A DNA stretch of 64,000 nucleotides from NCBI GenBank assembly GCA_036172245.1, contig JAYWIR010000003.1:1426001-1490000 (forward strand), given 5' to 3'. Origin of the DNA: Raillietiella orientalis (Eukaryota). Made by a program: the position numbers and the translations under genes. A model generated the notes under the pieces. That model searched no databases, was not told the DNA's origin, and worked only from the letters and a program-made list of their open reading frames with translations. Every line of letters begins with the position of its first letter. Positions within the stretch are counted from its first letter, which is position 1. Shown here piece by piece: positions 17,585 to 59,433 of this stretch.

Positions 17585-17655
17585 TTCCAAAAAGTAGTTT
17601 AATATACTGATCACCAGATAGGCGGAGTATCAGATATTAAGCTGATAAGAACAGA
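17585..17655 (-). ncRNA. U2: U2 snRNA fragment (about nt 40-110), 3' flank of a retrotransposon insertion
   Basis: Minus strand reads TCTGTTCTTATCAGCTTAATATCTGATAC...ACTTTTTGGAA, i.e. stem IIa through an Sm-site-like tract. Confidence 0.9.
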
Positions 17656-24111: not shown

Positions 24112-25229
24112 TCACTGCACAAAAGCTGTGTTTTTATTTGAAAATAACTTTCCTCGAAGAGCACTAAGTGTTATGAAAATAGCTTCCTCTGTTCTAATCA
24201 CTCTTGATCCTTGATTTGGACATGTATTCAGATAAAAATCAAAAACACTTAAAAGATCCCCTTTTATTTTCTTGTCATAATGAGCAGCTGCTTCTAGTCC
24301 ATTGAGACCACCAAAAACAATAAGCAAATGTTTAAATAAAGGAAAGTCTTCAACACAATCAATGTTTGCACCTTTATCTGATGTTCCTATTATGAGATCA
24401 TATTGAGGTGAAAATGGGCTCTCATTTAACACAGCACTCAAATTTTTAGCTATTCTGACTGAATAACCCCAGTACATGTTGAAATACATATATGGATACG
24501 ATGGAGGTACAATTTTTCCTCGCAGATATCTTGGATGCTCCACTTGGTCAGCATTAAGTTCAACAGTAACCCTGATACCAGGAATTAGTTCCTTTTTCAC
24601 TTTGACAACTTTATCTAATCCTATGTCAACAATCGATCCCTTTTTGGATATATTTCCTTTAGGCAGCGTAATTCCTTCCCTGGAAAAACTTTTCTTAAGA
24701 ATGCACTATTAGTTTTCATTTTATTTTTTACAATATCAAACATAATGGAATTCAACAAATAATTAAAAATATGCTAAACTCACCTAAACTGCTTACTTTC
24801 TGATTTTCTTAAATGATGGGGGAGATCCAAAGGATTAAGCACACCAGCACTGGATAGATATGGATGCTTAGGATATAGTTTTTTTCTGAGATACTGAGGG
24901 CATTCCAAATACTGTAAAATGTAGGCCATGTGGCTGATGGCATCATATTTTCCAAAACTTTCTTCAGTCAAATCTGGATGGTGCTCATTTAATTCTGGCA
25001 AGGAATCATGAAATACCACGATCTCATTGATGCAAAAGATGGATGCTGCTCTTGCAATCTGACCAACAAGGTAAGATTTCAAAATTTGGGATTGAGCATT
25101 ATTCATTATTGATCCAGGTAATGCAATTGACACCGTATAACTATTCTTTCTACTTCTTTCTGGGTCCTGGGTCTCTTGGAGACTTTCGATGAATTTTTTG
25201 GGTTTCCTTTTTTTTGTGACGGGCTCCAT
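24112..25229 (-). CDS. SPOUT1: SPOUT-domain methyltransferase (C9orf114/CENP-32), 2 exons: 25229-24784, 24679-24112
   Basis: TVSIALPGSI, GQIARAASIF, LQYLECPQYLRK, GVLNPLDLPHH, FREG across the splice, YWGYSVR, IIGTSDKG, FGGLNGLE, NTCPNQGSRVIRTEEA. Confidence 0.96.
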
Positions 25230-28200
25230 GCTCTGAAGACACATCATTAAGATCATAACCAAGTTTTACAAGAATGGTAAGTAATTAGAAAAAGCTTAGT
25301 TATATGTACACAATCATATCAATGGGACGGAAATATCAAGTGGCAACACACGTAAACAACCATTGCACTTTACACGCGAAATAATTCAAATAAATGGCAC
25401 AAGATTTGCGAAGTACCAAAATTTTACGAATTAGCAAGGTTGATAAAAATCACAAACGCATCCAACAAGAGTTTCATCGAAACAACGTTTCCCAGACTGA
25501 CTTTTCTGGAACTAACTTATGAGCAAAATTTCGTTTTCGTTTCGACCGTATTGGTGTAAAGCATCCATTAATGACACCTTGCCCCAGCGTAATTTTCCGA
25601 AGGGGAAATCAAACGTAAAGTTACATTCCTAAAAGTACTAGTTTTTGTTCTCCAAACTGTCCATGCATACGGCTCGATTTTGGGGGAAATAAAGTATACA
25701 TATATTTTTTGCAATAACTTTTTAGTATGTTCGTAGAGACAAACCTAGCAGGTACCACTCGTTCACATAAGTGATACAATGACTACCTTTTGTGTGCAGG
25801 CTTCCCACGCATTACTGTAATACTTTAAGAGACTCGGCACATTCGGACGTGTTTTGAGCCAAAAGAAATGTTAAATAAAACCACTGGTGTTTTTTTTAAA
25901 TGCGTGCTGGATTTAAAAAGAAGCAAATTTTTTAAGGTAAAGAGGAGAATTATTTGTCATTCGTTGTCAACATTCAAATACACTACGTTTTAAACCGTCA
26001 TAGTGTAGTATACAAAATATGCCACACTATCATAACTTAAAATGTGAATCTCTCTGTAAGTAAGAGCTTCATTATTCCATATACCAGAGCATCATTAGCC
26101 GATAAGTCTATTAATTTTGTCGAAGACTCAAATTATTTGCCAATATCGAGTTGAATCATAACAACGACGAATAATGAATTCGTTTTGCTAAGAAATGATT
26201 CCAGATTTAATGAAAAGGCCATTAATTAAATGAAGGAAACATTGCTCCCAGGTCATCAGTCAGTTTTTTATATAAGCAATTTCGGCAATGCTCTACCATT
26301 AATTTCTTAGTGGACATTATATGGGCGTTACAGTTTAGTGAAGTCTTGATGAATGCTACCTTCAGCAGGAATTTTTCGATTCAAAATCTCAAATGTGATG
26401 TATGTGACATAAAATAACGAATGTTTTCGACATAAATAATAAACGTTCAATATACATAGATTTCCTGTTACCTAGGAAAAATACAACTGTTAGATTTCAG
26501 TAAACATCTCGATCTGCCACTTTGATGAATTCGCAAGAGTGAATTCTCAGCCTTACTGATTAGGACGACATAGTACCAGTCAAATATCACAAGCTTCTCT
26601 TGCAAACTTCATGCAACTGTGACACTTACTTACCTATTCAATTCAATTCTTGTGTAGTCAGTTTCCTTATTTTCGAACTTTGATGGTCCGTTTTTTTCTC
26701 AAATGATTCATTTTTCAAAGTTAATATTCACTAAAGTGAAGCTGTCCTTGAGTGCCCTTCCTTTTTTAAAAGTTTTTCAAATACTTTTCCAGCTTTTGTT
26801 TTCTTTTAATAAAGTATTCGTGCCTCAACTAGGAAAAAAAAAACATCACCATTATTCTGAAGACTCTTTTTCTTTCTTTAAATTAGCACACTTATCTAGT
26901 TAGGTGGTACTTCTCTATGCACCAATGACAACATAATAGTCTTCAAAGTATATACCACTTTACCTACCAAGTAAACAAAGGATCATTCAATCTCATTCTC
27001 ATTAGAGAATTTAGATCTTGTAGAGAATGGAAATCGTAGAGAGTAGGTTGAGTACAATAATGAATCATATAATCATCTGATGCAGAAATATGTCGAAAAT
27101 TTATGTCCAAAGACTCAGCGCTTATTTATGTTAATATTAATGACATATTGAAAAACGTAATTTTAATTTTTGTAAATTAGATTTGTTTTTGCTTAGTGCA
27201 CTGCTCGTATACAAATAAAAGTTCATAAATTTAGTCATCTAAAATTTGCTGTTGGTATTTTGCTTTAACATTGATGAAATCTTAGAAGGATTTTTTTTCA
27301 AATAATAACTTTCAAATTGTTTTTAAAAAATAATGATTCACAAGAAGAGTCACAGTAGCATTTATAAGTTTCTTACATTATTCTTCACTGTTTAGTGTAC
27401 AGACCTATGCATTTCCTGCTAAACTGTAAGAAAAAAAGAATCTGAACCATTACAAAAGAAACATAAAAGGGAATAGTTAGAACAAAAAATAGAACCTAGA
27501 ATTATGCATTAGTAAGAAAACTAGTATAAGTAAACTAGTATTACTGATCTCAAGTACTGGAGTAAATCAATTGCTTTCCCTACCTGAAAGTTATTAATTA
27601 ATTTTTGGGAAAAATGGATGCACATTTTTTGAAACTGTAGAAGCGAACGTAAATGCATATTATCCCAAATATAATTTGCATCAGATTAGAAACCATAACC
27701 TTGAAATGATACCTATTGAGGAGGAAACCAATTTTATTAAAAAAAAGAAAAGAAAAGAAAAGAAATTTGTATCAGTGTTCTCATATAAATTATCACTTAT
27801 ATTATTGATGTTCAGTACAGATCATTACACTTCAAATGATAATGTTTGCAGACATTAAGTCGACATGCATCACATATGTGATGCAAGAGATTACTTGAAA
27901 AACATTTGAGTTCCATCTGGAATTTCGAACAGAATTGTTAAAAATTGTGACCTATATTCAGTTTGGAACTATGCATGCTTTTTTATAGCATTTGTTTATG
28001 TATCCTAACAACTCAATATTCATAAAACGGTATGTTGGTTTCATTCACTTATATTGTGAAACTAATGCTTTTTTTTAAGCTTTCCTTTTTACTGGAAGAG
28101 AAACAAAATACACTTATGCTATTATACTAATCAAAAGTATCTGCCTATTTAGGTTCGAGGTTTACCTTTATTTTAAGGATGAAAAGTTTTTTCTTAATAC

Positions 28201-28948: not shown

Positions 28949-29032
28949 GTCAGGTTGGCCGAGTGGTCTAAGGCGCCAGGCTTAAGTCCTGGTCCTCGTA
29001 TGAGGGCGTGGGTTCGAACCCCACACCTGACA
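28949..29032 (+). tRNA. trnL-UAA: tRNA-Leu (anticodon TAA)
   Basis: GTCAGGT/ACCTGAC acceptor stem, D-loop GAGTGGTCTAAGG, anticodon arm CCAGG-CTTAAGT-CCTGG, long variable arm, GGTTCGAACCC T-loop, downstream T-run. Confidence 0.97.
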
Positions 29033-37983: not shown

Positions 37984-38101
37984 GGCACCGCAACTGTAGG
38001 CTATCCAAGACTGTGTCTTCACAGGATGGAGATGTCATCCTGGTTCTGTCTGAATCGAGAGGAGAACCCATGGTTTCATCAGCAACTAAATAATCCTCAC
38101 A
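37984..38101 (-). repeat. Right arm of ~118-bp inverted repeat
   Basis: Reverse complement of 35670-35787. Confidence 0.95.
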
Positions 38102-40222
38102 GATCTATGTGCATATTGTTTTTCCTGATTCCGCACCGGGGGAAAAACGTGGCTGGATGCTCACTTCTATAAGGGACAACATCGTCCAGCGTGGGCGTAC
38201 GTAAGTGCATGCTGGGTGTCTCGAAGGAGAAAGTCTGGCGAAATCGAATCTTGGCCCATAGGCTGAACGAAGGCAAGTTGCAGTTAATCGAAAGAGATTG
38301 TGGTACCTCCGAAATTAGGGGGGTCGCGGGTACGTGTTGAAGCGGGCATTTCGTTACGATGGTGCGCATTTTGACGAGAGCTTTCGAGGGGTCGAATCTG
38401 CCAGTTAGCCGATGGAGCCCTCGGGCGCAGCGCTTCTCTTCGCCAAGTTTGCACATGACCCAAGTGCGCATTTAACCTGTGGAATGGATACAGAGAGTGT
38501 GCCAAAAGCCGCGTAACCTGAGAACACTCGGTGATATCTATCGTTCGCTAGTGGAAGGATAACAACCAGTAAGTACGTAGGTGATCTCAGTGTTCGGGCT
38601 GACAAGAGACTCTGGAAGTATTGAAGAGCAAGGATTGCTCCCAGGACCCGAATGTGATACAGCAGACCCTCGTATAACACGGATTTGCTCAACGCGGCAG
38701 CTCTCGTGCAACGCGGTCAATCAGTACTGCAGCAGCGACGCCTCGAAGTTTAATTTTGTGGTACTTGTAATTTGCGTTCGTTCAGCCGCCTTCGGAAAGG
38801 ATACGGATTGAGTAGCTTGAATGCTATTCCATTCGAATGTTCTTAAATAAAAGGGCTCAAGAAGATGACGATGCATTTTTCAGCCACGGGTGCGACAGGG
38901 CTGAAACTGGAGAGTCGTTTCCATCAATCGATAAAACTCCATGACCTTCGTCTCTCTCTCTTCAAGTCCAATGAAAAACCAACACTGCAAATTCCTTTCT
39001 TTTTGTCGTAAAGTGAAATGGTAAGCACAGTATATTTTCCATCTTTGGATGAATCCGTAGGACTCTTTTGACGAGGGAAATAGTCCTGTAAGACTTATTT
39101 CGAAAATTTATCAGCAATTGCTAATTTGTTCAAACCATAGGACCTCACATGGTATCAAGGATGAAAAATTGTGCGCCAGCATTGTAAAGTGGGATCTTTT
39201 ATGTGATGTGCAAGTGGGAGTGAGGAAGTTTCATTGCACTTGGCTCATCCTTGTCAACTGTGTTCCGGTAGGATTCTCTGTGCATGTTTCTTGAAGCTAT
39301 AGAGGGACTTGCTCGAAAATTTCAGCGTCCATTCGAAAGAAACATTTCTGAAGCCTCGTGACGTTGGTGCATCACGCAGGAAACTGGAGGGGAAAAGTTT
39401 CAAATTGAGTAGGTTTTTTCACTCGTTATATCCGTTGAAAACAAAAGTAAAATGAAAACACAGCGAGCAAAAAGTTTACAAATTTCGCTCTCCTTTCTGC
39501 TCTGACTTTCGAGCTGCTCAAAGGTACGAAACAAACTACTAATGCCTATGATCAGGTCGCAGCTTCCAGTATTTCATAACCCTGTCGTCAAAGTGCACGG
39601 CAAACTTACGTAACTACTTGTGAGAAACTCATATGCTGCTCAGAACACTTTTTGAGGAATTGTGAAGATGGCAATTGGAAATCCCCATGATATTTTGAAA
39701 CGTGGCTGTGGGGACAAATGAATTTCTCGTCTCTCCTTTTAACCCATTCGGAAAATTTCCACGTGCTGCAGGATCTTGTTTCGAATGAGCCCTGCTCGGA
39801 GACTCCTCGAACTTCCCACTCACAGTGGCACCAAGACTCCCGCAAAATAGCTTTGTCATATGCATATCCTTTCGTTTCCTTTCATTTCCAGGAAACTTAC
39901 TTTCCTCCATGCTTAATAAGATGCCCACTAGCTGTTATAGAGAACTATCGGATCTGTCAAGGTTTCGCCCTATATACACAAATCATCACCTCGAAAGTTA
40001 AGGGAAATTCTCAACAAGCGCATGCACACGGGATGAGTACAAAGAAAAACACCAACACGGTCCTCTCACAAATTCCAAAGTTTTGTCCAGAATGAGACCG
40101 ATTTCCTCTGTTCGAATTTTCATAAATGCGCAGTGGCGTGCTGAGATGGAATGCTTGGTGTGTGTTGTGTGCACCATGATCTTTTAGGATGAGAGAATAC
40201 TTAAAATTGCTGCCTTATTTAG

Positions 40223-41020
40223 AATGGATGGTTGCTAAGCTCCTATGACTGCTTATCGGCAACAGGACAACAAGACGATGATTGGATAGAAACCACCTAT
40301 TCCTTTTGGGTGAAACTCGAATCAGAAAGTGATCCATACCCTGTGTCTATGATGTGTCCCTTTTTGAAGAAAAATAACATATCCGTGGACTATGTTCTCC
40401 TAAAAATAGAAGCGGAAACTCGTTCCGCGGAAATCTCAATCCGAGGAGATCTGGTGGAAAAAAGGATCGAGAAAGGTATCACTGAACTCACTGTTTATGA
40501 GTTTTCCGAAATTGACCTGATGCGGTTCGCTCATAAGCAGCAGAGGAATGTGAGCCTCCGTATGGAAAAGTTTCTTCCTTATTACGCCCTCGTGAGGCAG
40601 AACGAGGCGATGAATTCGAGAGGAAACGCAGCTATGTGGTACCACACGAACGAGAGCACAGGCGCCTGGATGCTTTTCGGCATCATCCTTGACGACACAG
40701 AACGGATAGCGCCCATAACAAACTCTGTAGAACAATGGATCGACGGCGTCATGAGCACGGGAGCCTCGCATCCGTCCTGCTACATAATCTGTGACTACAA
40801 CGGGTCGTTTTGCCACAGCACCCGCAAGGAAAGCGAGCTAATCGCTCTGGAAGACCGATACTATCTGATAGAGGAGAGAATGCAAGCGCTCTCCCTCGTT
40901 GCCTCTGGGGGACTTACCTTTCTGTTACTCTTTGCTTCCTTCGAACTGAGGTCTGTGTTCAGAAGAAGGATCGAGCGGGAATGGATGGCTTGGAAGGAAA
41001 CTTTCAACGGTTCCGTCTAA
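40223..41020 (+). CDS. Divergent trypsin-like (S1A) serine protease homologue with C-terminal hydrophobic segment; probably a last exon
   Basis: After a tttag acceptor: GWLLSSYDCL (WVLTAAHC), DYVLLKI (DIALLKL), NSRGNAAM (GDSGGPL), WMLFGII, VEQWIDGVM, then LSLVASGGLTFLLLFASF. The frame is open for ~265 codons. Confidence 0.55.
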   Translation, partial: NGWLLSSYDCLSATGQQDDDWIETTYSFWVKLESESDPYPVSMMCPFLKKNNISVDYVLLKIEAETRSAEISIRGDLVEKRIEKGITELTVYEFSEIDLMRFAHKQQRNVSLRMEKFLPYYALVRQNEAMNSRGNAAMWYHTNESTGAWMLFGIILDDTERIAPITNSVEQWIDGVMSTGASHPSCYIICDYNGSFCHSTRKESELIALEDRYYLIEERMQALSLVASGGLTFLLLFASFELRSVFRRRIEREWMAWKETFNGSV

Positions 41021-41329
41021 CCCGGAAGCGACGATGTAGACGCCCTCAGGGGATCACTCACGCCGACGGGAAGAAGCCTCCTTGCGGAGCTGAGACCCCA
41101 TGCTAAAAGAGAGACCTATCGACTGGTAACGCGGAGTTTTCTCCCCCTCCGATGCAGCCAAGAGAGAAGGCTGGTGTGAACTTTCATCCGTTGTACAGGC
41201 GGTCGACGCTGCACGGAACACTCCGAGGGGAAGAAGAACCAGGCGATTCGGAGCCGAACTCAGCCAATACAACCGTTCGCATCTGCAGATTGTTCCATTG
41301 TTGCGGATGGTCAACATCAGATACAGTTT

Positions 41330-44082
41330 CAGTGATTTCCGACCCCCTCGCGGCACCCACATGTCCTGGTGAACCTAGCGCGCACGCAGGGACCGAATGT
41401 CTTTACCGAAGGTCTTCGATCGGGCAGTTGGGTCCGCAACACGACGCGCATTCGCCGTTCCGACTGGTCAGGCTCAGTGCACTCAAGAAGGTCGACTGTG
41501 GTCGTTCGGGATCCAAAAGCACACCATCTGATCCCGATGTGTTCCGCCCGCTGGTGTCTTGGGAATTTCCTTAGCATTTCACCGTCGAGATCCCTCAGAG
41601 GCTCTTCCCACTTGTCCATCGCGATGAGACAGGCGCTCCTTCGGAGGAGAGGTGGTCTCGGGGCCAGCTCGCGATGCCCACCTCTTCCAGCGCTGTCGGT
41701 GAGGGTTCGGGCTGAGCAAGCAATTCACAGAACAAACCCTCTCCCAGGATCATCGTGGCTGGCCTCAGCTTTCAGCTTGTTTCCGGAACGATTTGGTGGG
41801 TGGCTACTAACTCCCAGCGACTCGGTGCAGAGCACCATCTGCCCGCGTTGGCGGCCAGAGAGAACTCGCGCAGCATCGCGAGTCTCGGGTTCGAACCCCC
41901 ACTTGACGGAAGATCAGTGCCGAGAATGTGTGGGGTGCATCGTGAGTTCCGAGTCCGCTCCACTCCTCCCCCTCACCCCCTGCAGGACGGCACCAATTGG
42001 CTCATGGACTTTTGGGTGTTGCACTGGAATGACGCTTCTTGCGTCAGGAACTGGGTGCCTCCGCTGATTAGCCGGAATGGGGAGTTAACCCTTCGGGGTC
42101 CTTTCAGGAATCACAGAGCTTCGGTTCTTCCCTCCAGTTTGTGTCGTGAAGTGCCCTTTCCCCTCACTCGTCCCCCTCCCCCTTCCATTTGTCTCGCCCA
42201 CGCCCATCCGCGCTTCGCAAGGCTCAGTGCCGGTGCCTTCCGATGCAGCGGACGCGACGGCGTCTCCTATCGGCAAAGGTGGGCGAACGAGACGGGCCCA
42301 TGGGCGTCCCTCCGACGAGCTCTCCGCGAGGAATCGGTCGCCACTTCCAGTGCATGGACCCCTGGACGAGAGTGTCGAGTCGCGCCAGGCTTTGCCCGCT
42401 CCCCTTCTCTGCTGACCGGGGAGAGATGCTTGTTTCTACGACAGGCCTGCTGCGGAGCATGATTTCCCAGCCATCTGGGACGATGCAGCAGTGCTCTTTG
42501 GGCCCCACTGTGTCCGCTTCCCCCGGGGCAGGTTGGGGAAGTGGTGCTCTCGTACCGTCATTGGGGAGCGAACGATTCCGTGGAACTTCAGGCTGGAATC
42601 ATTGCCTCGAAATTCCTCCTGAGTTTCACGGACGACAGTCACTTTGCATCCCAAACCCCTCTTCCTCTTCGCCCCTTCCCCAACAAGTCTAGGGTGTGAC
42701 GGGCAAGAGAACGTGCCTTCACATCTTCATCATTTTCGATGGCAACCATTCCGGCTACGTCATCAACGATTCGGGGGAATTCACCGGCCGCTCTTGCCCT
42801 TTGGCCTCGAGGTAGCCGGGCCGGACCACTCAAATGACTAAATGCCGAACTCGTGTCCTAACCGCGACGATGCCTCCCTCTGGAACAGGTTGGAACTGAC
42901 TTGTGCCAGGTCACCATCATACCTTGAGCAAGTGTATCACCAGCTCTCCCATCTTGCTTTCCTGATCTGCCAGAAAGGGTCATTCTTGCCCTTAGAAGAC
43001 GCAAGTGTGCTGCAGCAGCTATACTGTCGATGAAGACTGCAGCGGTCCTTGGAGAGCTCAAAGGAAAGCTCTTTGAGAGTACCAGATCCATGCTCAGACT
43101 GTCTTCAGCTACGTGATTGATCAGATTATAATGCAGGGTCTGGACTGCCAGTAAGTCAATCTGCATCGCTTGTCTCGTTCCAATGCGAGTTCTGATGGAA
43201 TCTTGGACCGTTCCCAGTTTAGAAGTACTTCTTCAAAGTCAGAATGAGTATTGCTTCTTCAAGAGCCTTCACTAAACTGGTTCTGCCAGTTTCGTGAGAA
43301 CCAGAAGTCACGATTTTTGTGCATCCTGCTCGCATTTCTGCCAATCATTTTCTTTTTTCACTTGGTGATCTAATCCCAGCGACCAGCCAGTAGTGGTCAG
43401 CGATCTCGCCCAACTTTCCTCCTTGGAATCATTCCACCCATCCTGGTACGTCAGCTGCTATGAAAGAATTGCCTCTCCTCCGCAAAAACCGTAGCTGGGA
43501 ATTAGGAAAGGAGTGAAGGAATGAAGAGAGAAGTGGAACGTTGGTGTCGCCTCAGTGGTGGTCCATGGGATGACACAAGGCCTTGCAAAACAAATCGCTG
43601 CATGATCCCTGTACACAGAACTCAGCAACGATGTCTCCAACAATCAGAATGCTCTCTACCCTGTACACAGCTAAGCATGATGCGATCATTAGAATATTGA
43701 GAAAAGCTGCCTTTGGGGCTGGAGTTAGGATGGATCCTGATATCTGCAGATCGAAAACTCCCAGGTCTGGATTCTCCTCTTCGGCCTGATTCAGTGCTGA
43801 AAAAGGGCAATGGGATGGTGATGCTAAATGACGCCTTCTCCCATGAGAATGGAGATGAAGCCTTCAACACTGCGAAAAAGGAGGAAGAAACCAGGTGTCG
43901 AGATGTTGCCGTTAAGCTCTCCCCAGAAGGCGTGGAGTCAAAGACTGGAAACATGGGACCCGCTAGGTGATGCAGTTGCTCGGGCCCCGAAAGTCCCGCG
44001 CAAGTATGCGGATAAGATCAGGCTGCTGATGGTTTCAGCTTGTATCTGTTTTACACGCGATGTTTATTGGGTACACTGGTGA
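41330..44082 (+). mobile_element. Decayed Utopia-like RLE non-LTR retrotransposon(s): RT pieces, CCHC region, RLE
   Basis: GRDGVSY (PGPDG), LYTAKHDAII (RHD), LRPDSVLKKG..HENGDEAF, WDPLGDAV..YADKIRLLMVSACICFTRDVYWVH. Confidence 0.85.
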
Positions 44083-44481
44083 AGCTCTTTCCTCAGCAGA
44101 GCTAAGACTGGACCCTCACAGAACAAAGGGGAAGACAGACGAAAAACAGGAACCGGAGGAGGGTTCCTGTTTTTCGTTCTGACAAGTTCTGAAGGACAGC
44201 ATCCGAGAAATCAAGAGCTACCATCTTGTTTGCGTTCGATGTGACTGAGTGTGAAAATAGAAAAACTCACTGGTAGCCTTCTACCTACGATATTCCTATA
44301 AGGACCAAACAGTGATCGGTATTCAGCGTATTGTAAATTATGGAACCTCAAAACCAGAACGCTGCTGAGTATATTTACTCCATTCTTGGTGCAACCGAAA
44401 GATTTTGTCACATGCAATGATTCAAAAAAGAAAAATCAATAAGCTTGTGACACCATCCATTACACTTGGAACTTGGTGATC

Positions 44482-44515
44482 ATCGCTTCTCGGCCTTTTG
44501 GCTAAGATCAAAGTG
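44482..44515 (+). ncRNA. U2: U2 snRNA 5' fragment (nt 1-34)
   Basis: ATCGCTTCTCGGCCTTTTGGCTAAGATCAAAGTG. Confidence 0.95.
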
Positions 44516-44522
44516 GAACTTG

Positions 44523-44558
44523 GTACCTGCTTCGGCGGTACATATACTAAAATTGGAA
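44523..44558 (+). ncRNA. U6: U6 snRNA 5' fragment (about nt 1-36)
   Basis: GTACCTGCTTCGGCGGTACATATACTAAAATTGGAA: the 5' UUCG stem-loop plus the conserved ATATACTAAAATTGGAA. Confidence 0.93.
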
Positions 44559-44569
44559 ATTGGTAAAGT

Positions 44570-47100
44570 TCGGAGGTAGCCGTCATAAGGAACTACCTTC
44601 CGGGCTGATGCAGCTCAACCTCGCCCAGGCATCCACGAATTTTTACATCCAAGCATTAAGGTTCAAAGGGCAGCAGAAGTCGAGCAGAAAGGCCACCTGC
44701 TTTAGGGGAAACCCCAAGAGCTTCATTTATTCCGGGTTTCGGGCAGAAATGACGCGAGTCCCCTGCAGCCAACCGCTTGCCGTAGAAGGTGGCGAGTGGA
44801 GAAGCACCACTGCTGGTTTAATGCCCTCTTCTCCTTTTTTTCTTTGACCTCTTCTTTAGGACGAGTCTTCGAAAGTAGAGCTACAGCTCTATCCTCTTCA
44901 GCATGAGGATGCCGAGTTCGGCATCCTTCTGTGGAGCTGCAATGTCCTTGAGGCAGGCGCGAGGGCACAAAGCGCCCCAGAGGGACTTCTTCAAAAGTCC
45001 GTCGGCCCGTTGCCTTGCCTCAGCGGGAGGGGAGCAAACAAAAAGAAGCGGTTGGAGGAGGTGAGCAACAAAAGAGCTCCAGATCAAGACTCACCCCGGC
45101 AGGTTGAACCTGCCCTTAAGGAATGCACCAAGAGCCTTCTCTGTCTTTTGGAGGCAGCCGGACCACGCCTCGGAGGCGCCGAAGTCGCCCACTGATACGC
45201 CAAGGTACTCTAACCACCTGCTCGTGGGGACGCCAAGCGGATCAAGTCCAGGGCCTCTGCAGCGACGCTCCCACTGGGACGCTCCGCCTTGCTTATTTGC
45301 GTAAATGCCCGTTTCCCGGCAGATCAGCTCGAAGAATTCCTTGAGCTCAGCTTTCGGGGTGGGAAGAGGGGCAGCAGGAGACTCAAGTCATTTGCGTAGG
45401 GCACCACGGCCGGCGTGTACGGGCAGAACATTGACTGGTTGACCAGAGTTGTCTCGTAACCGTTCAGCACCCAAAATAGGGCTCAGCTGCGACCTTGCCT
45501 TATTCCTCGACACACCGACACGCCGTAAACGTGGAGACTGTCGCTACTGATGGAGATTCGTGTGTAGCGCTAAAGCAAGGTCAAGTAACACAGCAAGCAT
45601 CAGGGCAATCCTAGGAGCTGCAGGAGTTCCAGGCTCACGTACTTGGAAGCCTTGTGGAGATAGATTGCAATCGCCAGAGCATCTAGCTCCTCTACCTCCC
45701 AGTTCTTTTCCCTACGGACCTCCTCTGCAACCTTCTGTTGCAATCGTAGCCAGCTCTTCCCAAGGAACAAGTTAGACTTCACATTTCTGCGCTGCACAGC
45801 ATAGGTCAGCTCTGATGAAGTCGGCCATCCATCCCAGGCACGCAGTCCAGAGTCCGAAGAGCAGCTGCATGTCCTCATCCGCTGGATCGGTCGCATGCTA
45901 GTTGCTCAGATTGCAAAGGTCTCCTCTTCTCGGAAGAAGACACACTCTGGATGACCGGAAGGAGGCGATGGTATCTCGCCTCTCACCCGAATCAGCACGG
46001 TCAACCTCTGTACCATGTCAGCAGCATCCTCCTCAAAGCTCTGGCGCACCTTCCTCTGCCATACCCGCCACCCCCAGTAGCTTCCGTCCGCAACGGAAGG
46101 CCGCCCATTCCCATGGCGAACGCGAACGCCAAGTTGGTGGTGGCCACGCTGCGGAATGATTGACCACGACAGGTGGAGGAATGCATCGTCCTTCCGGAGA
46201 ACGCCTACCCGGGGGCACGAAGGCACGGAGTACAGCCCGCTTCTCGCCAGGACGCAGCGATACAAAGGGAGAGCGTCCAGAGATAAGCGAAACCCCAGTA
46301 ATCCCCGATGTTTCCAACCGTGGGGATGCTGACGGGATATTGACGCGCCGGACGCCCTGCGATCGCAGTCGACTTGCAAAAGGCACTCGACTGGGTCGAT
46401 CAGGACCTCATCGAGGACCTCTCGGAGCGCGTCGGCTTCTTCCCCGTCTTGCAGGGCTCACCTGCGTTCCAGATGGCACGGTGCGCGTCTTTTTCCGGTG
46501 GTCGGCACGTTGACTGCGCGCGACGGCGTGTTGGGGCTTGAGGATCCAGTGCCTACTCCGACTTGGTGCTGGGGGCATTCCAGGGACACTTCAGAGACCT
46601 TGCCGAGCTCATGACCGGTAGGGAGCCCAGCCCTTCATCCGTGTGTCCATTCGTCGATGACAAGTCCGAGCGACGATGTCACTCTTGCTGTTAAGCAGGT
46701 GACGGAAACGGGTGAAGAAGGAAGAAATTGGGCTCCCTGAGTCCTGGAGCTGGTCCAGAGGTCAGGGAGAACTCCAGTTTCATTGGGATAAGTCCCGGGA
46801 GCAGTCATAGGTTTGGGATTTTCCATGTCTCGCCCCACGGGGTCGGTGGCTTCCGGCGCCCCTTCTCGACCTGCATGTCGGCTTGATCGAATGGTTTCGT
46901 GCTCAGGAAAGTTCGATGGCGATCCGTGTCGCCTAGCAACCGTCCTCTGCGCTCGTGGAGACGGTGCAAGCGGGTCGATAGTTTCTGGGATGGTGACCTG
47001 ACCTGGCTGGCGGGAAATGGTCGCTCCGCTTCGTGCTCTGCGCCGGCGGCATCGGTGGGACAAGAGAATGTCACGAGGCGGAATCCCGGATTCCCTCAAA
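44570..47100 (-). mobile_element. Decayed R2-group non-LTR retrotransposon (N-terminal Zn-finger-like region and RT)
   Basis: FSCPTD..LHRLH, CVPGMDG, LAVLLDLALA, QLSPIL, VPYANDL (YADDL), LEYLGVSVG, APQKDAELGI. Confidence 0.8.
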
Positions 47101-48515
47101 GTTTCGGGGTTGCTGGGGAGTGGGGAGGGAGAGGCGAGGTTGATACTTTCTGCTTGGCATGATTTCGGACAGCCATTTCTAGAATCGCGTGGAGGATGCC
47201 TTCCGGGAATGTTGGAATTCAGGATGAAGGGAAAGTGGTAGCAGCAGCAGTAGCAGGAACAGTAGTAGCAGGATGAGGGGGAGGAGGAGGAGGAGAGGAG
47301 GAGGAGGAGGGTAAAGGGATATCCTGAGCCATGTGGCGGCTCTTCCATGACAAAAAATGCAGCGGAGAAACCCAGAGACGACGGCGTTGCATCTTCGGAA
47401 ATTGTTGCCTGGAAGGGTGCCGTACGTACTCCCAGTTGCAATGGATACTCCTTTCCCTTCCTGGTGCTGCGCGAGCGATGGAGACTGGAACTTTCTCGAG
47501 GTCCATCTCCCATCTGGTGTTCTCCGTGACGCGGACCGAGGAAGACACGAATATGCAAGGATTCCGGAGGCAAATGTGGTCAAAATTCTCCAACAAGGAG
47601 TGGACGGGATGTTTCGCGCGCGCGCGCACACTTCCGTAGGAAACAGTGAGGAAAAACTGACCCGAAAAGAGAAGAAAGTTGATGCCGCTGCTTGAAGATT
47701 TTTTTTTTCCGAAAGAGGACGGTGATGCGACACCACGGTTTCCAACAGAGAGGAGAAAAAAGAAAGAGAAAAAAAGGAACGAACGCCCCTACTCCGCGGA
47801 CTGGGAGAGGAAGGAGAAGCGGGAAGGAAAAGCCAGTTGCAGTCTTCTCACGCAGCGACCCACGCTCCGACTCCACGAGCGCCTCTAGCACCGCCCCCCA
47901 CCTTGTCGGTCGCTCGCTACTCCTCCGCGTCGAGCGACCACGACTCTCGGCTCCTGGAGGTTGCGCTCGACCGGATGGCGGCTCTCTTCTTTCCCTTGTC
48001 CACGTCCATCAGCAGGACCGCGGCGAATTCCCATGCCGCGTCTCACGCAGTGCTCGCGGATGCTGCCCGGGCGCTCGGACCGGCAATGTATCCTTCTACT
48101 CTCCATCCCAACCAAGCTGGAGTGGATACCTCGTTCCCCGAGAGAGTCTCTATGGAAATGCGAACCACACATGCCGTTTCCGCGGATGCCTCGCCCAACG
48201 GCGCGTGCTTCCCCGATGGGTTCCGTGGCGAACGTGACGCGCAGCTTCACAGCTAGAAGGGCTCGAGGCGATGCTTCGTTTCTTCGCCGATGGTCCCAAA
48301 GTCCTGCTTTCACACCCGTGGGAACGTTTGCACGTCTGCCCATTTCGATAGGTCCGCTTCATCCCACGGTCGCTCACAAGGCAGATCTCACTAAGATGCA
48401 TTTCCAATCAGCCACAACAGCAAACAGTCAGCTGATAAAGATTAATATATTTCATACCACTTTAATTGAGCATTTTACTGTAGTATACATTGCACGGAGG
48501 AATGACAAAAGCCAC

Positions 48516-48776
48516 AAACACATATAACCAACACAACACCGCCGGTTCTGAACGAAAGGAACGGCCCTGTCCCCTACCCTCCCCATATCTTTATTTATAT
48601 TATTTACGTGTATATTTGTGGTCCCCGCCCTCCCGTTCCGGACTTTCGGATTTACCGACCTGCGTGTCGGGGAGCGCTCCCTTCGTTTTTCTGTGTCCTT
48701 TGTCCGGGAACAGAGTTTCCGGATAGCTTAGAAAGAAACGCCCCGGCGCACCCGGGTGGGAAACACATATAACCAA
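48516..48776. mobile_element. 229-bp insert flanked by 16-bp direct repeats
   Basis: aaacacatataaccaa at 48516-48531 and 48761-48776. Confidence 0.7.
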
Positions 48777-50099
48777 TATAGATAGATGGATTGCTGTATC
48801 TTCGGATACTCTTGCGACTATTAAAGAACGTGGTCTTTTTATACCAAGATGTATTCAACCAACTGCGAATAAGAAATGTTAACATCAGTGATTACAAAGG
48901 TCTTCTTGTTCCCCCTCTACAACTGTATCGTTTCTTCCCTTATGAAGGCAATAGCCTAACAAAAGAAGCGTACTTTTTTATCTCTTCAGAAAAGAACGGA
49001 AGAAAAAACGGTTGTAGTAAATCCAAGGAAAGACTGAAATTTTTTTAAAAAAACTCGAACGCGCTGTGTGTAAAATTGTGGCATCAGCAGGCAAGGAGGC
49101 TCCCTACGGTTGTTTCAGAAGAATCAGCTTCATCTGGACCTGATCTTCAGAAGTTACACCAAACTTGCCCTTCCAAGAGCGAGGCTTTTTTTTTTGGGAT
49201 GCACGCGCAACCAGTGCTTTCCAAATTCGCATTCATTCTCTGCAGGGTTGGGTAAGAGTGTCTCGACACTCGGACAAAGCAAAGAGCCTAGACGGATGTC
49301 CGAACACGAAGAAGCTTCGTCAGCAACACTTTCTCGGAATTGCTGATCGGATGCTTCAAAGTTATTCGGTTTGGTGCATCGGAGCTTCCCTCCCAGAACG
49401 AATTCCGAAGGGAAAACCCCGGCTCGAGACCCGGAGTGATTATTCACCGATGAGGACGGTTCGAATGCCAAATTCATTAATCAACCGACATTGACCGGGC
49501 GACAAGATACAGGTACAATCGAGAGAGCGAATGCAACACTTACAGCATCCCGGAGTCCAAGATCTCTGCTCAGAACGTACATTCGGTTTTCCTATTGTTT
49601 ATTGTTTCACTATGGCAACATATCGGCAGAGGACGTATGGTAAAATCCCTATCAGGATTCCCACGCACGCATCAGGAAGAAAGAGGGAAATAAAAAAAAA
49701 AAAAAAAAAAATAGCAATTATGATGGGAACGAACATTTGAATCCGAATAGGAGCTAATCGCAGAGTTATGAGGAGCTATTTTCCTTTCGTGTGAGCTCCC
49801 GCTGAACGCTGTACATCACAGCATCAAACCACATCCTAGCTCACCAGGGGAAAAAAAACATATGGAAATGCAATTTCCGGCGGTTTTCCCTATCTTGCCG
49901 CCGTACTTTTTGCCGGGGTGTCTGTCTGTGCTTACGATAATCGAATTCTGTTTGTGCTCGGCGCCATTTCGTATCCGTTTCCTCTCCTCTGCCCAGTTTC
50001 TGTATTTTCGATTGGCAACTGTTGAGGCGTTATGGATTTTTAACTCGACATCCAACGCGAATTTGCTTTTTGCAGTTCTGATCGCATCAATTGCAAAGC

Positions 50100-53000
50100 G
50101 AAAAGCTCATACAACTTGATGAAACGGATAGAGAGCATCAGTGCTTTGAGAGTTCTCTATTTTTCTCCACTGTTGTTCCCAAGAGACCAATGAGGAAGCA
50201 AAGCAGCAGTTGATCTGTTTGTGGCGTTCCATGTATAACAGATATATATGCCTATATGGGTAAATACGCAGTGTCCCATGGATACTTGCTTTTAAATACA
50301 AAGAACCTAAGGATCAGCGAGATCTCGTAGTACCTAGAAGTTAAAAGCGGAGAACAAAATTTAAAGGCTCACATTAAGGAAAAAAACCACAAATTGGTAC
50401 GAAGTTACAAGCAGTCTTTCATTTTTATTGGTAGGAGGATGCGTATTTGCGTCAGTACTAAGAATCGATCAGCAATAGAAGCGTTTGGATTAAGGAGCCG
50501 AATGAAACAGAACAAAAACAAAAACAAATACAGGATTCAAAAATACAGACACAGAAAAGTAGCAAAAAAAACAAAATTCCCAAGAGTCCGTGCATTAAGT
50601 ATCTAAATGAGAGGAAAGAGTTTGATGGTTGGGGATGAAGCTTCCGCTCCTGCAAATGTCTAAATGAAAAGATTCAAAAAGGAACGCGAGTACTTGATTA
50701 AAGGAATATTAGTTATTGAAGCATCTTGAAGGAATGCCTTCACATCCCAGAATACATTGCCCTTCGATCCAAGAAAAACTACTCTCGATGGGAAGAATTC
50801 TAATGGAAGAAAACTCACAGAACCAGTTTCGACTTACAGTGAACCTGGTTCTGCTGGCAGTGCGAACTTGACACTTATCTATCAAGACCCACGATGATTT
50901 CAATACATCAACAGGCTTTGAATGCTTATAAGATAACCAAGGGTATATACGAAGGCCGAAATGAACATTCTAAATTCAAGAGGCGATCAGAACTGTCAAA
51001 TATTCTCCGTCCACAGCCTGGTATTTGATGATCACAATGGTGTCCCTTTAGAGCAGAGCTCTGCTGTTTGATGTAGAAGCAGTTCATGCTTTCAGTGGAA
51101 GGCCATGGAAGATCCCCTGTCATAAAGTCTGACAAATAACTACAGAGATCATAAAGTTGTACGCGATGTATGCAGCGGTAGAGTAAGGAGGAGATGATCG
51201 TAGGAGATGATCTGGAAACAGAAATTAGCTTAAAAGAACAGAAAAGCTGGCTGCATGCTGAGTGGGAAAGGGCTACAAACTGTAGCAGCATTCTTAGTTT
51301 CCTGTGGTAACAGTCAAATATTGAGATGCTGAAGATTCAATGGAATGATGAAACTAAACTTTGGGAGGATGCGAAAGTCATTATACCGGACCATGAGAAA
51401 GCATTGAAAGCAACTGCCACTCGGAAGCAGTCCTTTTCATAAGTGACCAGTCGTGAAAAGCTTTTTAAATTGGAGCAGAAAACAGAATCGAAAAGTAGGC
51501 AAAAGAAGGTATGCCAAGCAAAACACTTGGGTTTCGGAGGAACTCTCACAGAATCGATGTCTTTACAGTACAGACTGTGATGTGAAGTTATTTATTTGGC
51601 GAAAGAATAGATTTTGAATTCTCATTCTCACTGTCATCAGTTAAACACTGACATCAAGAGTCTTCATGCGCTTTAGGTCTTTGGGTTCAGGAAAGTTGAC
51701 TGGAATACCATAAGACGATCAACACAGATGATTACTGAGCAATTAAAGGTCATCCGATTCTCAGTGCTTTTTTCTTCAACCTCTAAAAGATTTTTAAAGA
51801 ATCCATCATATGTTCACTCGACTAGTTTTTGGAATACAGTTTCTCGTAATGGAAATTTTCAGAAAAAATTGAGTTTCCTTCCAGAAGTATTCTAGTATGA
51901 ACTTCAAGAATGCTTTCATGGCGACCATGTGTACAGTGAATGAAGTACTAAAAGTGAAATTAGAATATAAAGTCACAACGTATGGTGGCATTTTCGTAAC
52001 GATGTTCAGCAACTTATAGAACTTCTTGAGAGCTAAATATGAATTTATTAAGATAAGAAATGGTTTCCTCTTCAGTGGAACGTAGTGAACATTAAGACAT
52101 GGTTTTTCACGTTTCTATAGACTTATCCAGGAGGTCTAGCTCAACTTTTGAAGTGCAATTAAAGTTTCATTTAAAATGGAATTTAATTCGAACAATCACT
52201 CTACATGTGTGATTTATTCTGCAGGATAAGATATGAAGTATGTCAACGATCAAAGAATTCCAATATGGGTTCTTTATTTTCTCATCATTATTTGTTAGCA
52301 TTTAGGAAGGAAAGGAAGAAGTGGAAAGAAAATTGAAGTAGGCAAATGATTGAAAACGAGTTGAATTCAGTGAAAACTCACTTTCCTCCTCAACTGACTT
52401 ACTCTGGTCCTGCTTTCGGTAAATGCCGGTATTCCATTCTTGGACTATCTGTGATTCGTTAGTCTTCTTCCTTGGTGGACTTTGAAAGACCAGGAATCTT
52501 CTCTTTTCGGTTTTGATATTCCTCTTGTGAACCTTGATGGCTTCTTTGTATCCTTGAAAGGTAGCACATCTAGATAGATTTCTCCATGAAGCGAAACAAA
52601 TTACATGTCTTGAAATTGGTTCCTGCAGATAACACGCACATTTTGTCATTGGTATGGAATCTACACCACCTAGAAGAAAAGGGTAACATTTCGAAACCAT
52701 TTATCAAGAGTGTAGATCACATCAATCGATGAAAATGATGAATAGTCTATTTTTTAATTTACTTGAATCCTCTGTAGTGTCATCCAATGAAGGAAAAGTT
52801 TTCTCAGTAACTGGATTTTGATGAGCTCTGGGTGAGTTTCCCAAAGCAGTTTTCCGTGAAGTGTGTTACTCCTGAATACACCATAAGTTCAATTCTATCT
52901 ATATTTGTCTCATTCCGTCTGCTGAAAAATTCACCTCCTCTCGATATCAAAAGTGTGTATCCTGATTAAGAAGGACTTCTGGAAAGCAAAAATTCTGATC

Positions 53001-55678: not shown

Positions 55679-57066
55679 TCAAGTATATGCTTGAGCTAGC
55701 TGTAATATGTTCTGTGCCTGTAACACCAATGGCCTGTCTATCATTCTACCATGGAAAACAAAAGCTCCCTAAAATACAATACAGTTGCAACCTCAGGAAC
55801 AGTTTTAGGACACACTTTTCCATGTGACTGATGTTCTTCAAATGCTTTTAAAAGTTCCTCAGCCCATACTATTTGCTGTTTGCTTGGTGTATAAATTTCT
55901 TGGACTGGTTCCACTTGTGAGGGATGAATGACTTGTTTTCCAGTAAATCCAAAACTCTTCCCCTCCTCAGCTTGTTGTCTCAGCCCTTCTAGATCTATTG
56001 GAGTTGCCTACCATTCTACTTATTTTATGATTACCTTTAAAATCAATGTAAACCATATCAATGGCTTGAAGGCCCATTGCTTTTGCTGAGATGACAAACA
56101 ACTGGCGTGCAACGATCAGTTCTTTAGAAGCTGTTGTACGCTCAGCTCCAATATCAGCACAGAAGTCATCTGAACCAAGTACTAATCCTTCAAGGATAAA
56201 AGGAGCATTATTTGACAAAGAAATTGCAGTATGACACAGTTCACGGATGTCTAGCAGGGCATTGGCTGATTCTATGTACATTAGCAATTTCAGCTTTTCC
56301 TGAAGCTTGCGTGAGCCTAAAATCTGCTTTAGTTGATCAGAAAACTATGAAAAAAAAATCAAGATCTGATTGTATTTGTCAGCTTTCAGTACCCAGTGCA
56401 ACTCTTCTTTACTTTCTACTTTTGGTAAAAATAATGTGGATGGAAGTATCTCTCCTGAGAGAATCACTTCAAGATCTTGCTGGCAAAGATTATCAGCACT
56501 TATGGAATTTACACGAACTGCACACTCAGAAGTTCCAAAATTAACATTGTTTTTGTTGATGCAGTTTGCAATAGTGTGTCTTGCTGCATTCTAAGGAAAC
56601 AAAACTAAATGATTGAAAATTGATTTCTCAAATGAACCATAGTAAACATGAAATTTCCATTGCAAGCACTCAATAAGGCTTGTCCATGCAAAACACTACA
56701 CAATATCATTGAATATCAACATTTTTAATGCATGAAATGTTGCAGTGGTGTATGAAGTAGTTTATAAGAGGATTCATACCCATCCTACAATAACGATGCA
56801 TCCGTGTTCAAAAGTTTGGATGAAATGCTCATTTCAAGCAAAAGTCTCACCTTTTTGGAAAACGCCACTCCATCTTCACAATCCAAAATGGCACAATCAA
56901 CACGTATACCTTCAACTTTTTTTATTTTCTTTTCATCGTCGCCAGGCACATACAACACGGCCCTTCGTGGAGTGAACCTACTGTTTTTACCTGACTGTGG
57001 ATTTAAATAAGATTTGAAGTTACTACACTGTGACAACTTTCTGCCCAACGTGCTAATGAAACGCAT
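55679..57066 (-). CDS. CLYBL: Citramalyl-CoA lyase / citrate lyase beta-like, multi-exon
   Basis: PRRAVLYVPGDDEKKIKK, LDCEDGVA, LGSDDFCADIGA, LQAIDMVYIDFK, GFTGKQVIHP, GAFVFHGRMIDRPL. The start codon is tentative. Confidence 0.95.
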
Positions 57067-57735
57067 TTCACTCGAAGAAACCTGTCGTCAGTATTCCTGG
57101 AACATTGCAGGAACAAATAGGAATACAGGATACTGTTCGGGGAATCAACATTCAAAAACATGCGTGCATTTGGCCGGATCTACCGGTAGGCATTCCGTTT
57201 AAATTTCGATTGTATTATGTCCCAAAGGGAGTTGTACCTGATCAGCTTTTGCGTTAAGAACTACGGCTAGTTAATTCGGAGTTCCTCCAAGTTCTCAGAT
57301 GATTGAAATTCATTCGGTTCTTCTGCTCAGCATACGTTTCTGTACCGGTTTCCTCTACAGAGAGAATCACCAAGGTCGCAGCCCAAGCAGAATGGGAAAA
57401 CTCGGTACCAATACGGGTTGCCATGCAAAATGCTGAATGAAAATGACTTCAGCTTTATTTTTTGTCTGTGTGGTTATGAGATTTGTTTTTGACTTTTTTG
57501 ATCTCACAGAAACTGGAAACCAGGATTAAAAAGGAAATCACCCCTTTTATCTTATCGCTCATTTATCTCGTAATGCTGAGAACGTTAAGAAGCAATGTTG
57601 AGAAGAAAATGTTTACTTAGGTAGTCCCAGCGCAGGTTTACTTTTTCGATGCCAAACTTAATAGGCTGAAAACTATCCTTTTCCGCGTACACAGTTATGT
57701 AAAAAGAGGAGAAAATATGCTTCTATTTAAATATT

Positions 57736-58026
57736 GAACTGGCGCTATGGGATGAACCTAACTTGGGCTACGGCGCCCGATGCGACGCTCATCAGATTCT
57801 ATGAAAGGTGTTGGTCGCTATGGACAGCAGGACGGTGGCCATGGAAGTCGGAATCCGCTAAGGAGTGTGTAACGACTCACTGCCGAAGCAGCCGGCCCTG
57901 AAAATGGATGGCGTTCAAGCGTGGAGCCTATACCAACCGCCGGGAAAGAGCCGTTCCTGCCTTCCGGGAGCGTTCCGGAGGACGGCAGGTTCCTCAGGTT
58001 CCGGCGAGTAGGAGGGTAGCGGCAGT
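57736..58026 (+). rRNA. 28S: Isolated 28S (LSU) rRNA fragment/pseudogene
   Basis: GAACTGGCGCT..GGATGAACC, ACAGCAGGACGGTGGCCATGGAAGTCGGAATCCGCTAAGGAGTGTGTAAC, GCCCTGAAAATGGATGGCG, GAGTAGGAGGG. Confidence 0.95.
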
Positions 58027-59433
58027 TACTACTTGCATTCGACACATAGTGTTAAAAGTAATATTAACGCATGCTTACTAAAGTATGAACTTTTTGATAA
58101 TCATATCAAGGATATTAATCCTTGATATTTCATGCAACTAAGTTTATTGATACGTATTCGTGTCTACGAAGGGTTTGGACGCGAGCTCGCCTGGAGTCTT
58201 ATAATTCTTGATCGATCCTTAGGAGGATTGCAATGCTCTCTTGAGAATTTCTTATCATTTGAGCCTTTATACCTATCAGTTTGTCAGTTCAAATCATCTT
58301 TAAATTCAGTCGTAATTTTAGATTAGTTTTAATAAGATAAGAGAAATATTTCCAAATAGACAAAGATTGCTTCTGACACGAACACTCTTATTCGGTTTTA
58401 ACGACAAAGGAACAACATAATAATAATTGTTTTGCAGTCGAAAGGCAATAGAAGAAAAATTATCATCATCACGAAATATAACGTCCTTTATGATGCCATA
58501 TATTTTGGCGATTTGATGATATTGTGACTGACTGTGATCCTTTGTGGTCGTGACAAGTGTCTGAAGGAACCTACGGTCTTCTGGTTATGCTTCCATAAGA
58601 ACAACCTACGGTTTGGTACGGAGAATGCGAGATTTTGATTCTTCCGCACCTCTATAATAGCTTTTTAAACAGACATCACAAATTTGTGGATGATTTACAC
58701 ATCCTTTGGGGAGAAGAAATTATGCGCTACATGAGGAATATTTGCATCAGATTTTTGAAAATGATCTACGCAATTTACACACGAATTATTCCAACAGTGG
58801 AATTACTGGAATACGCACTCATGGCTCTACAGTGACTAGCACACTTATTTTACTTGCTTTATCTGAACGAGTTGCAAAATTCGCAGTTGGTGGCAAATGT
58901 GGTAAACCACTGTGGAAGGACCGCTAGGGTATGAATTAAGAAACGACTGCCCAAACTAATGAGTCAATACGGTGTAGCAAATGAGCATGGGTATTTGTAA
59001 AGGGAAAAAAAAATGCCCTCAACTCACAACACCAGAAAACGAAAAAGAAAAAACAGGGAGGCAAGCTTGCCGTAGGTGCTGTCCTTCTAGGCTTTATTTA
59101 TTTATTTTTTTTCAGCACATCAGCTTTTTACATTCATGAAGGAACGAGTGCAAGATCAATCCTCAGCAAGATGGGGAAATGTGGGTCTAAAATTGGAATC
59201 GCAACTGTCGTACCCGAAGTTCAATTCCAATTTGTGACTTCCAGCCGAGTTCATCAGCTGAAATTCTTAGTGGACAACATAGATAAACTATCATTGCTAC
59301 TTGCATTCGACACACGGTGTTAAAAGTAGTAATTAACGCATGCTTACTAGAGTATGAACTTTTTGATAATCATATTAATATCCTTGATATTTCATGCAAG
59401 TAAATTTATTGACACGTATTCGTGTCTACGAAG
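58026..59433 (+). repeat. ~145-bp direct repeats (58026-58171 and 59294-59433) flanking ~1.1 kb
   Basis: Both copies run ctacttgcattcgacac...cgtattcgtgtctacgaag. Confidence 0.92.

Follow-up and report, generated by a model that had tools for sequence, protein, structure and literature searches.

Within a 64,000-nucleotide stretch of contig JAYWIR010000003.1 (positions 1,426,001 to 1,490,000, forward strand; hereafter the window), a 97-bp array at 44468–44564 (+) holds the 5′ ends of two spliceosomal small nuclear RNAs (snRNAs) between copies of a 10-bp direct repeat, in the order 10-mer, gatc, U2 head, same 10-mer, U6 head and variant 10-mer. We lean modestly towards reading this array as young RNA-templated retrocopies of the U2 and U6 5′ ends (tailless retropseudogenes), laid down at a single break, staggered by 10 bp, through target-primed reverse transcription, since the inserts have a full 5′ end, a truncated 3′ end, no A tail and flanking duplications. 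As compared to known RNA-derived pseudogenes, the unusual feature is the presence of two snRNAs at one site with three copies of a 10-bp target. A sequence-only reading of this DNA had described the repeat-U2-repeat-U6-repeat arrangement, and its reality is upheld by the sequence, by Rfam matches to both 5′ ends and by shuffle controls.

Anatomy of the array

The array is made up of six parts, some of which overlap:

44468–44477 (+): direct repeat copy 1, GGAACTTGGT, preceded by TT
44478–44481 (+): gatc, four additional bases separating repeat 1 from U2 nucleotide (nt) 1
44482–44515 (+): U2 snRNA 5′ fragment, ATCGCTTCTCGGCCTTTTGGCTAAGATCAAAGTG, 34 nt, 3′-truncated and tailless
44515–44524 (+): direct repeat copy 2, GGAACTTGGT
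44523–44558 (+): U6 snRNA 5′ fragment, GTACCTGCTTCGGCGGTACATATACTAAAATTGGAA, nt 1–36, 3′-truncated and tailless
44555–44564 (+): direct repeat copy 3, GGAAATTGGT, with a single mismatch (C to A) as compared to copies 1 and 2

When 44300–44750 was searched against Rfam with an E-value threshold rather than the gathering threshold, the U2 model (RF00004) matched at 36.9 bits (E 5.9e-6), with model positions 1–33 identical and one inserted A, and the U6 model (RF00026) matched at 17.7 bits (E 0.063) over model positions 1–34. Both scores lie below the respective gathering scores of 46 and 44 because the 5′ ends alone are present, as pieces of 33–36 nt; a gathering-threshold scan of the window accordingly called neither array piece as U2 or U6. 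No genuine full-length U2 or U6 snRNA gene was found in the array. The U2 insert had been taken for nt 1–34, and while it is indeed a 34-nt piece of the U2 5′ end, it consists of nt 1–33 plus a single additional A, located in CAAAGTG. The U2 alignment reached 44638, an effect of whole-model alignment in which the part beyond positions 1–33 is filler. A U2 3′ half downstream of the array, as that alignment would imply, was rejected, as 44559–44720 searched alone against the Rfam U2 and U6 models gave zero matches at E ≤ 10.

Both copies start at nt 1 of the mature RNA (the Rfam alignments begin at model position 1), which points to an RNA template copied to its end by run-off rather than to a piece of a gene. 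The U2 copy ends at nt 33 and the U6 copy at nt 36, with the repeat following each directly and no A tail, and the U6 piece preserves a fully paired 5′ stem-loop. The start at nt 1, the 3′ truncation and the missing tail, common to both inserts, agree with the earlier proposal that they derive from RNA. An accompanying appeal to the pairing of U2 with U6 adds nothing, as the U6 regions that pair with U2 lie downstream of the captured nt 1–36.

It is extremely improbable that the locus is a working small-RNA gene, encoding a chimeric or spliced-leader-like RNA with GGT/AAAG after the third repeat as donor. Stems and a AAUUUUUA tract are present downstream of the third repeat, the inserts, unlike the decayed flanks, are intact, a five-T run at 44639–44643 could terminate a polymerase III transcript, and the fold of 44523–44650 is somewhat stabler than those of shuffles (z −2.24; 8 of 200 as stable). 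However, this fold statistic is weak, the Rfam matches are limited to the two 5′ pieces, and the U2 piece fills the region upstream of U6, so that no promoter can be placed.

The repeats had been described as partly overlapping the snRNA ends, and the joints do overlap by 1, 2 and 4 nt: G at U2/repeat 2, GT at repeat 2/U6, where U6 nt 1–2 double as the final two bases of the repeat, and GGAA at U6/repeat 3. The 5′ joint of U2 carries four extra bases, and we infer that gatc represents extra nucleotides added at the 5′ junction. These observations support the conclusion that the repeats behave as a target-site duplication (TSD) with microhomology at the joints. The same pattern of overlaps and extra bases is described for the 5′ and 3′ junctions of long interspersed nuclear elements (LINEs) in PMC2912911.

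Chance was assessed by pattern searches of the window and of shuffled sequence. All three window matches to GGAAMTTGGT fall in the array, as against an expectation of 0.42 per 64 kb; a count of three was reached in 1 of 100 shuffles. The exact 10-mer is absent from the rest of the window; with up to one mismatch allowed, five matches were found as compared to 4.37 expected, three of them in the array and the others, at 19951 and 42047, being background. For the initial 30 nt of the U2 piece, the window holds a single match, and none of 100 shuffles gave one. A repeat search grouped the three junctions as one family in a common register, 47 and 40 nt apart. Tandem Repeats Finder reported nothing in 44300–44750, in keeping with an array of three short repeats around unrelated inserts.

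Searches for further copies were negative. No copy of the presumed empty site, in which the left context of repeat 1 would be joined to the right context of repeat 3, turned up elsewhere in the window, metagenome scans returned no loci for either the 36-nt U6 piece or a generic U2-5′/U6-5′ composite pattern, and a full-text literature search for the U6 stem sequence gave no match. Two U6-like candidates were rejected: a third, old U6 piece upstream of repeat 1 (repeat family D2), whose score was equalled in 776 of 2000 shuffles, and a 19-mer at 13712–13730 (−), which is low-complexity ACACAC/ATATAC sequence. We give almost no weight to an assembly or library artefact, as DNA libraries are made without a reverse transcription step and the sequence to the left and to the right of the array is unique.

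The array contains at most two changes in 97 bp, namely the C to A change of repeat 3 and, possibly, the extra A of U2. The right flank contains a reverse transcriptase (RT)-like frame, described below, with 7 stops in 293 codons that is undetectable by Pfam and HMMER, and by this comparison the inserts look younger than their surroundings.

Proposed serial copying at one target site

At repeat 1 the top strand reads TTGGAAC, with TT before GGAAC, which matches what we take to be the U6 sequence around nt 31–37. U6 nt 37 would be C, in which case a DNA end in ...GTTCC-3′, left by a bottom-strand nick to the left of GGAAC, would pair with GGAAC of U6. Under the retrocopy explanation, the bottom strand would be nicked just left of GGAAC, and its ...GTTCC-3′ end would anneal to GGAA(C) of U6 (nt 33–37) and be extended to U6 nt 1. 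The complementary DNA (cDNA) would then jump to the 10-nt top-strand overhang GGAACTTGGT, aided by the common GT, to give the middle repeat. Instead of sealing, the same ...GTTCC-3′ end would re-prime on U2 RNA near nt 33, with synthesis running to U2 nt 1 plus the four extra bases, and a second jump onto the overhang would be followed by sealing. Alternatively, the regenerated site may have been cut and used in two separate events with an identical product; two independent events at a regenerated site would need a site-specific nick. The sequence in which the pieces were made, the placing of the nicks, the single-event route and the identity of the enzyme are the elements of this scheme that we infer. 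The family of explanations suggested by the sequence-only reading, with repeated insertion or template jumping at a single re-used target, remains the best.

The enzyme was probably the RT of a retrotransposon without long terminal repeats (non-LTR), and possibly came from the U2-associated family seen at 17.6 kb (see below). Bibillo and Eickbush reportedly observed serial template jumping by an R2-type RT in vitro. According to PMC8594491, a non-LTR RT can jump serially between several templates and join them in a single cDNA, and double template switches are recorded in vivo (PMC2104539). The integration model for LINEs with a restriction-like endonuclease (RLE) includes a jump onto the upstream target, and TSDs of 9 and 13 bp are given for RLE LINEs and of 10–20 bp for LINEs with an apurinic endonuclease (APE) (PMC6895275). 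In common with the in vitro R2-type reactions of PMC8594491, the array would represent one cDNA for which several templates were each copied up to the 5′ end, the jumps involving little or no base pairing and some non-templated bases. Unlike those reactions, in which the jump is to the 3′ end of the next template, entry in the array is internal, at U6 nt 36 and U2 nt 33, and in the proposed scheme the target DNA serves twice as template.

The closest described class is that of the tailless retropseudogenes of tRNA, rRNA and snRNA, which are 3′-truncated and flanked by TSDs (Schmitz et al. 2004, cited in PMC2912911); 3′-truncated snRNA copies with TSDs also appear in PMC4476161 and PMC4494074. 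The array resembles this class in its 5′ start, 3′ truncation, missing A-rich tail, TSDs and abundant snRNA template. It differs in that two snRNAs stand in tandem and hold the middle duplication in common, resulting in three copies of the 10-mer, and in that the class is known from work on mammals while the host of the array does not look mammalian. The putative bottom-strand cut, TTCC/AAGT, differs from the motif TT/AAAA quoted in PMC2912911 for the L1-type machinery.

Several points weigh against the retrocopy explanation. Priming by microhomology suits U6 well and U2 poorly, as the U2 entry overlaps the repeat by only 1 nt. Repeat 3 is one base off repeats 1 and 2 where identity is expected, so a later mutation is needed. 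The published tailless class comes from work on mammals and L1, whereas the window looks intron-poor and non-mammalian. An internal target copy between two inserts is not among the described outcomes, the single-event route is our own construction, and the evidence comes from a single locus and one example. No source of RT or endonuclease was found by any database tool in 38–51 kb.

The same features bear on repair of a break without a retroelement nuclease, in which an activity of the polymerase theta type would copy nearby RNAs and the break overhang over several rounds. Polymerase theta is reportedly capable of RNA-templated synthesis. The short overlaps at the joints fit such repair, as does the recopying of flank between the fillers, a hallmark of templated insertions in alternative end joining, and no retroelement enzyme can be demonstrated nearby. 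However, both fillers, 33–36 nt long, reach nt 1 of their RNA exactly, which fits run-off reverse transcription, and 10-nt 3′ overhangs are the product of LINE nicking (PMC6895275). We therefore consider break repair of this kind improbable.

If the retrocopy explanation holds with a single event, the array would record, as a natural fossil, in vivo serial template jumping in which an RT used the overhang of its own target as template between two cellular RNAs; such use of the target overhang is so far known mainly from the R2 enzyme in vitro. If the events were serial, the array would mark a site-specific nick that regenerates its own target. By either route, tailless snRNA retrocopies would extend past the mammalian L1 setting. 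A more far-reaching idea, which we rate as decidedly improbable, is that a sequence-specific retroelement nuclease re-cuts its self-regenerating target and, when its own RNA is not loaded, copies any abundant nuclear RNA able to anneal, leaving the 5′ ends of the captured RNAs as an ordered repeat-insert-repeat record and many arrays of this kind genome-wide, at copies of one target. If true, this would be a eukaryotic, RT-driven analogue of spacer acquisition. As a single locus, the array is a curiosity and not yet a new system.

Flanking sequence and a second U2 fragment

Three further features of the window bear on the source of the enzyme and on alternative origins of the array:

43578–44082 (+): left flank, decayed and frame-shifted open reading frame (ORF) tail, with motifs read by eye
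46008–46886 (+): right flank, RT-like frame, with VDLQKALDWV at 46368 and CPFVDDK at 46644
17578–17675 (−): second U2 fragment, nt 38/39 to about nt 107, 45.2 bits in an Rfam E-value scan of the whole window

The array had been placed between two convergent RLE elements. This claim is not borne out, as no RT or endonuclease was recognized by Pfam, HMMER or PDB searches and the motifs read by eye are both on the + strand; if the flanks are elements, they would be arranged in tandem rather than convergently. In the left ORF tail, a zinc knuckle, HD..I, RPD...D...AF..A and a C-terminal tail were seen by eye and look RLE-like, without database support. A regular expression for RPD...D...AF..A gave a single match in the window and none in 30 shuffles; as it was written after the sequence had been seen, this is not an independent result. 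In the right flank, an expression for RT motif A (one substitution allowed) gave a single match in the six frames of the window, at 46368 (+), with a shuffle mean of 0.13, and 92 codons further downstream in that frame is the YxDD-like CPFVDDK. This RT-like motif is 1.8 kb downstream of the array on the + strand, has no Pfam, HMMER or PDB support, and sits in a frame interrupted by 7 internal stops in 293 codons.

Database searches of the flanks gave the following results. Pfam assigned no family to 29 ORFs, found just three unrelated weak matches (E 0.16–0.34) in 12 read-through frames of 38001–51002, and gave no RT, endonuclease or transposase above noise in 105 and 69 further shorter ORFs. 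The best Pfam match, DDE_Tnp_1_2 in ORF 44706–44903 (E 0.0098), was rejected as being at chance level given that about 300 ORFs were tested. A HMMER search of the 293-codon RT-like read-through against 1.84 billion representative proteins returned no matches. The PDB holds R2 structures; a PDB sequence search gave no RT match at E ≤ 10 for the RT-like frame and no matches for the RLE-like ORF. A word-indexed search of longer proteins yielded nothing for either flank query, and the ESM Atlas produced only PIN-like bacterial clusters at 0.90 or lower, which are a lead at most and were not used. A comparison of the left flank with the right found no DNA similarity and, in either orientation, no protein similarity below E 0.05, which indicates that they are not recognizable copies of one family. 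No TSD of the large flanks was evident: within ±12 kb, matches to the left junction did not exceed 11 nt.

The position of the RT-like frame raises the possibility of a 5′ chimera, in which a + strand non-LTR element would start near 44565 and its RT, after completing reverse transcription of the element, would have switched to U6 and then to U2 in one insertion. The snRNA pieces are in the sense orientation directly 5′ of the + strand RT-like frame at 46.0–46.7 kb, and the array-to-motif distance of about 1.5 kb corresponds to a usual length of the N-terminal region in elements of this kind. Recurrent 5′ addition of U1 or U2 is documented, including a 32-bp U2 head (PMC4494074), as are double switches (PMC2104539). 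In its sense snRNA heads upstream of a possible LINE body, the array resembles the snRNA/LINE chimeras, such as U6/L1, the Magnaporthe WEIRD/Mg-SINE/MGL elements (PMC2104539) and SINEU (PMC4494074). As in tripartite chimeras, more than one RNA was captured at one site, and as in SINEU-3, the U2 head is about 32–33 nt long (PMC4494074).

A chimeric element should nevertheless match its inserts in age, and the one presumed here has decayed to the point that neither Pfam nor HMMER recognizes it, whereas the inserts are intact; in this the presumed LINE body, much older in appearance than the inserts, departs from the known chimeras. The known chimeras are also direct fusions with one pair of duplications, whereas here the 10-bp, target-derived repeat stands between all parts and no outer partner repeat was found: a matching TSD would be expected at 47–52 kb, and no fourth copy of the 10-mer with at most one mismatch is present there. 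Finally, the RT reading itself has no database support. With respect to a short interspersed nuclear element (SINE) of the SINEU type, the U2 head-like piece is present, and neither poly(A) nor a closing duplication was found downstream of the array. Taken together, we think that a 5′ chimera is unlikely, and that the tailless retrocopies remain the preferred explanation.

The second U2 fragment, at 17578–17675 (−), extends from nt 38/39, where ATCTGTTCTTATCAG is an exact match, to the Sm site, with truncation after about nt 107. Immediately upstream of it is a decayed ORF tail at 17748–17918 (−), of which 27 residues are 52% identical to the ORF tail of the left flank (tblastn E 1.9e-4; blastp E 7e-4). 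In the work of Kojima and Jurka, U2 resumes at nt 39 on the downstream side of Utopia insertions, and the APE-type Keno uses the same site; Utopia also has variable 5′ boundaries and occurs in tandem insertions (PMC4640811). The fragment at 17.6 kb shows this Utopia/Keno 3′ junction, with U2 from nt 39, and provides context from outside the array. Judging from the junction and these sequence similarities, a U2-associated non-LTR family has probably been active in this genome, with the left flank probably related to it. Such activity linked to U2 counts in favour of the retrocopy explanation.

Such target-specific transposons could in principle have broken resident snRNA genes, with Utopia or Keno in U2 and Dada in U6, leaving the array as gene remnants. 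The U2-targeting insertion evident at 17.6 kb speaks for this, as do the variable 5′ junctions and tandem insertions of Utopia, and decayed non-LTR-like ORF tails do lie beside U2 fragments in the window, as with Utopia and Keno (PMC4640811). Unlike at a Utopia/Keno junction, however, the array U2 is a 5′ part that stops at nt 33 rather than nt 38, no U2 3′ part (nt 39 onwards) was found near the array or after the nearby elements, and U6 is also involved. The U6 piece ends at nt 36, whereas Dada-U6 splits U6 at nt 65–70 with a 6-bp GCGAAA/GCGCAA duplication (PMC3706591). Two snRNA genes 8 nt apart, each within the same 10-mer, do not constitute a gene arrangement. The gene-remnant origin is thus largely refuted, and we consider it very improbable.

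Other features of the window

Several other parts of the window may derive from mobile elements or RNA. An internal fragment of large subunit (LSU) rRNA at 57562–58010 (+) matches Rfam model positions 967–1383 at 179.5 bits in an AT-rich context that is not ribosomal DNA; good conservation is restricted to its final ~280 nt, and it could be an RNA-derived copy or a target remnant. Just downstream are two adjacent direct-repeat pairs, 58063–58171 and 59332–59433 (47 and 54 nt, 94–96% identical, about 1.26 kb apart), which suggests a duplicated unit. A run of 21 A residues at 49692–49712 (+) may mark the 3′ end of a polyadenylated + strand retrocopy. Two long inverted-repeat pairs, 8786–9077/11142–11433 (292 nt, 98% complementary) and 35670–35790/37981–38101 (121 nt, 96% complementary), each enclose 2.1–2.2 kb and look like the terminal inverted repeats of DNA transposons or foldback elements.

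The window is a strong mosaic in GC content, from 28% at 27–28 kb to 71% at 62–63 kb within the 64 kb. Its gene content looks like that of a eukaryote with few introns and with genes of animal type, among them those for ZU5 and guanylate-kinase domains and for a SPOUT-type methyltransferase. The GC-rich stretch at 61620–63998 (−; 66–71%) is apparently intron-free coding sequence with guanylate-kinase and ZU5 domains that runs off the end of the window, and resembles ZO-type scaffold proteins. At 24115–25265 (−), two ORFs of about 33% GC with a 77-nt gap, probably a short intron, between them encode a SPOUT-type RNA methyltransferase (Pfam Methyltrn_RNA_3). An isolated ORF at 55970–56344 (−) matches the C-terminal part of HpcH/HpaI aldolase/citrate lyase (E 1.1e-15). 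The 265-codon open frame at 40223–41020 (+) borders the GC-rich left flank and has no Pfam family. It terminates in a hydrophobic segment and then basic residues, as an ectodomain with a membrane anchor would. A single intact tRNA-Leu gene with anticodon TAA is located at 28949–29032 (+).

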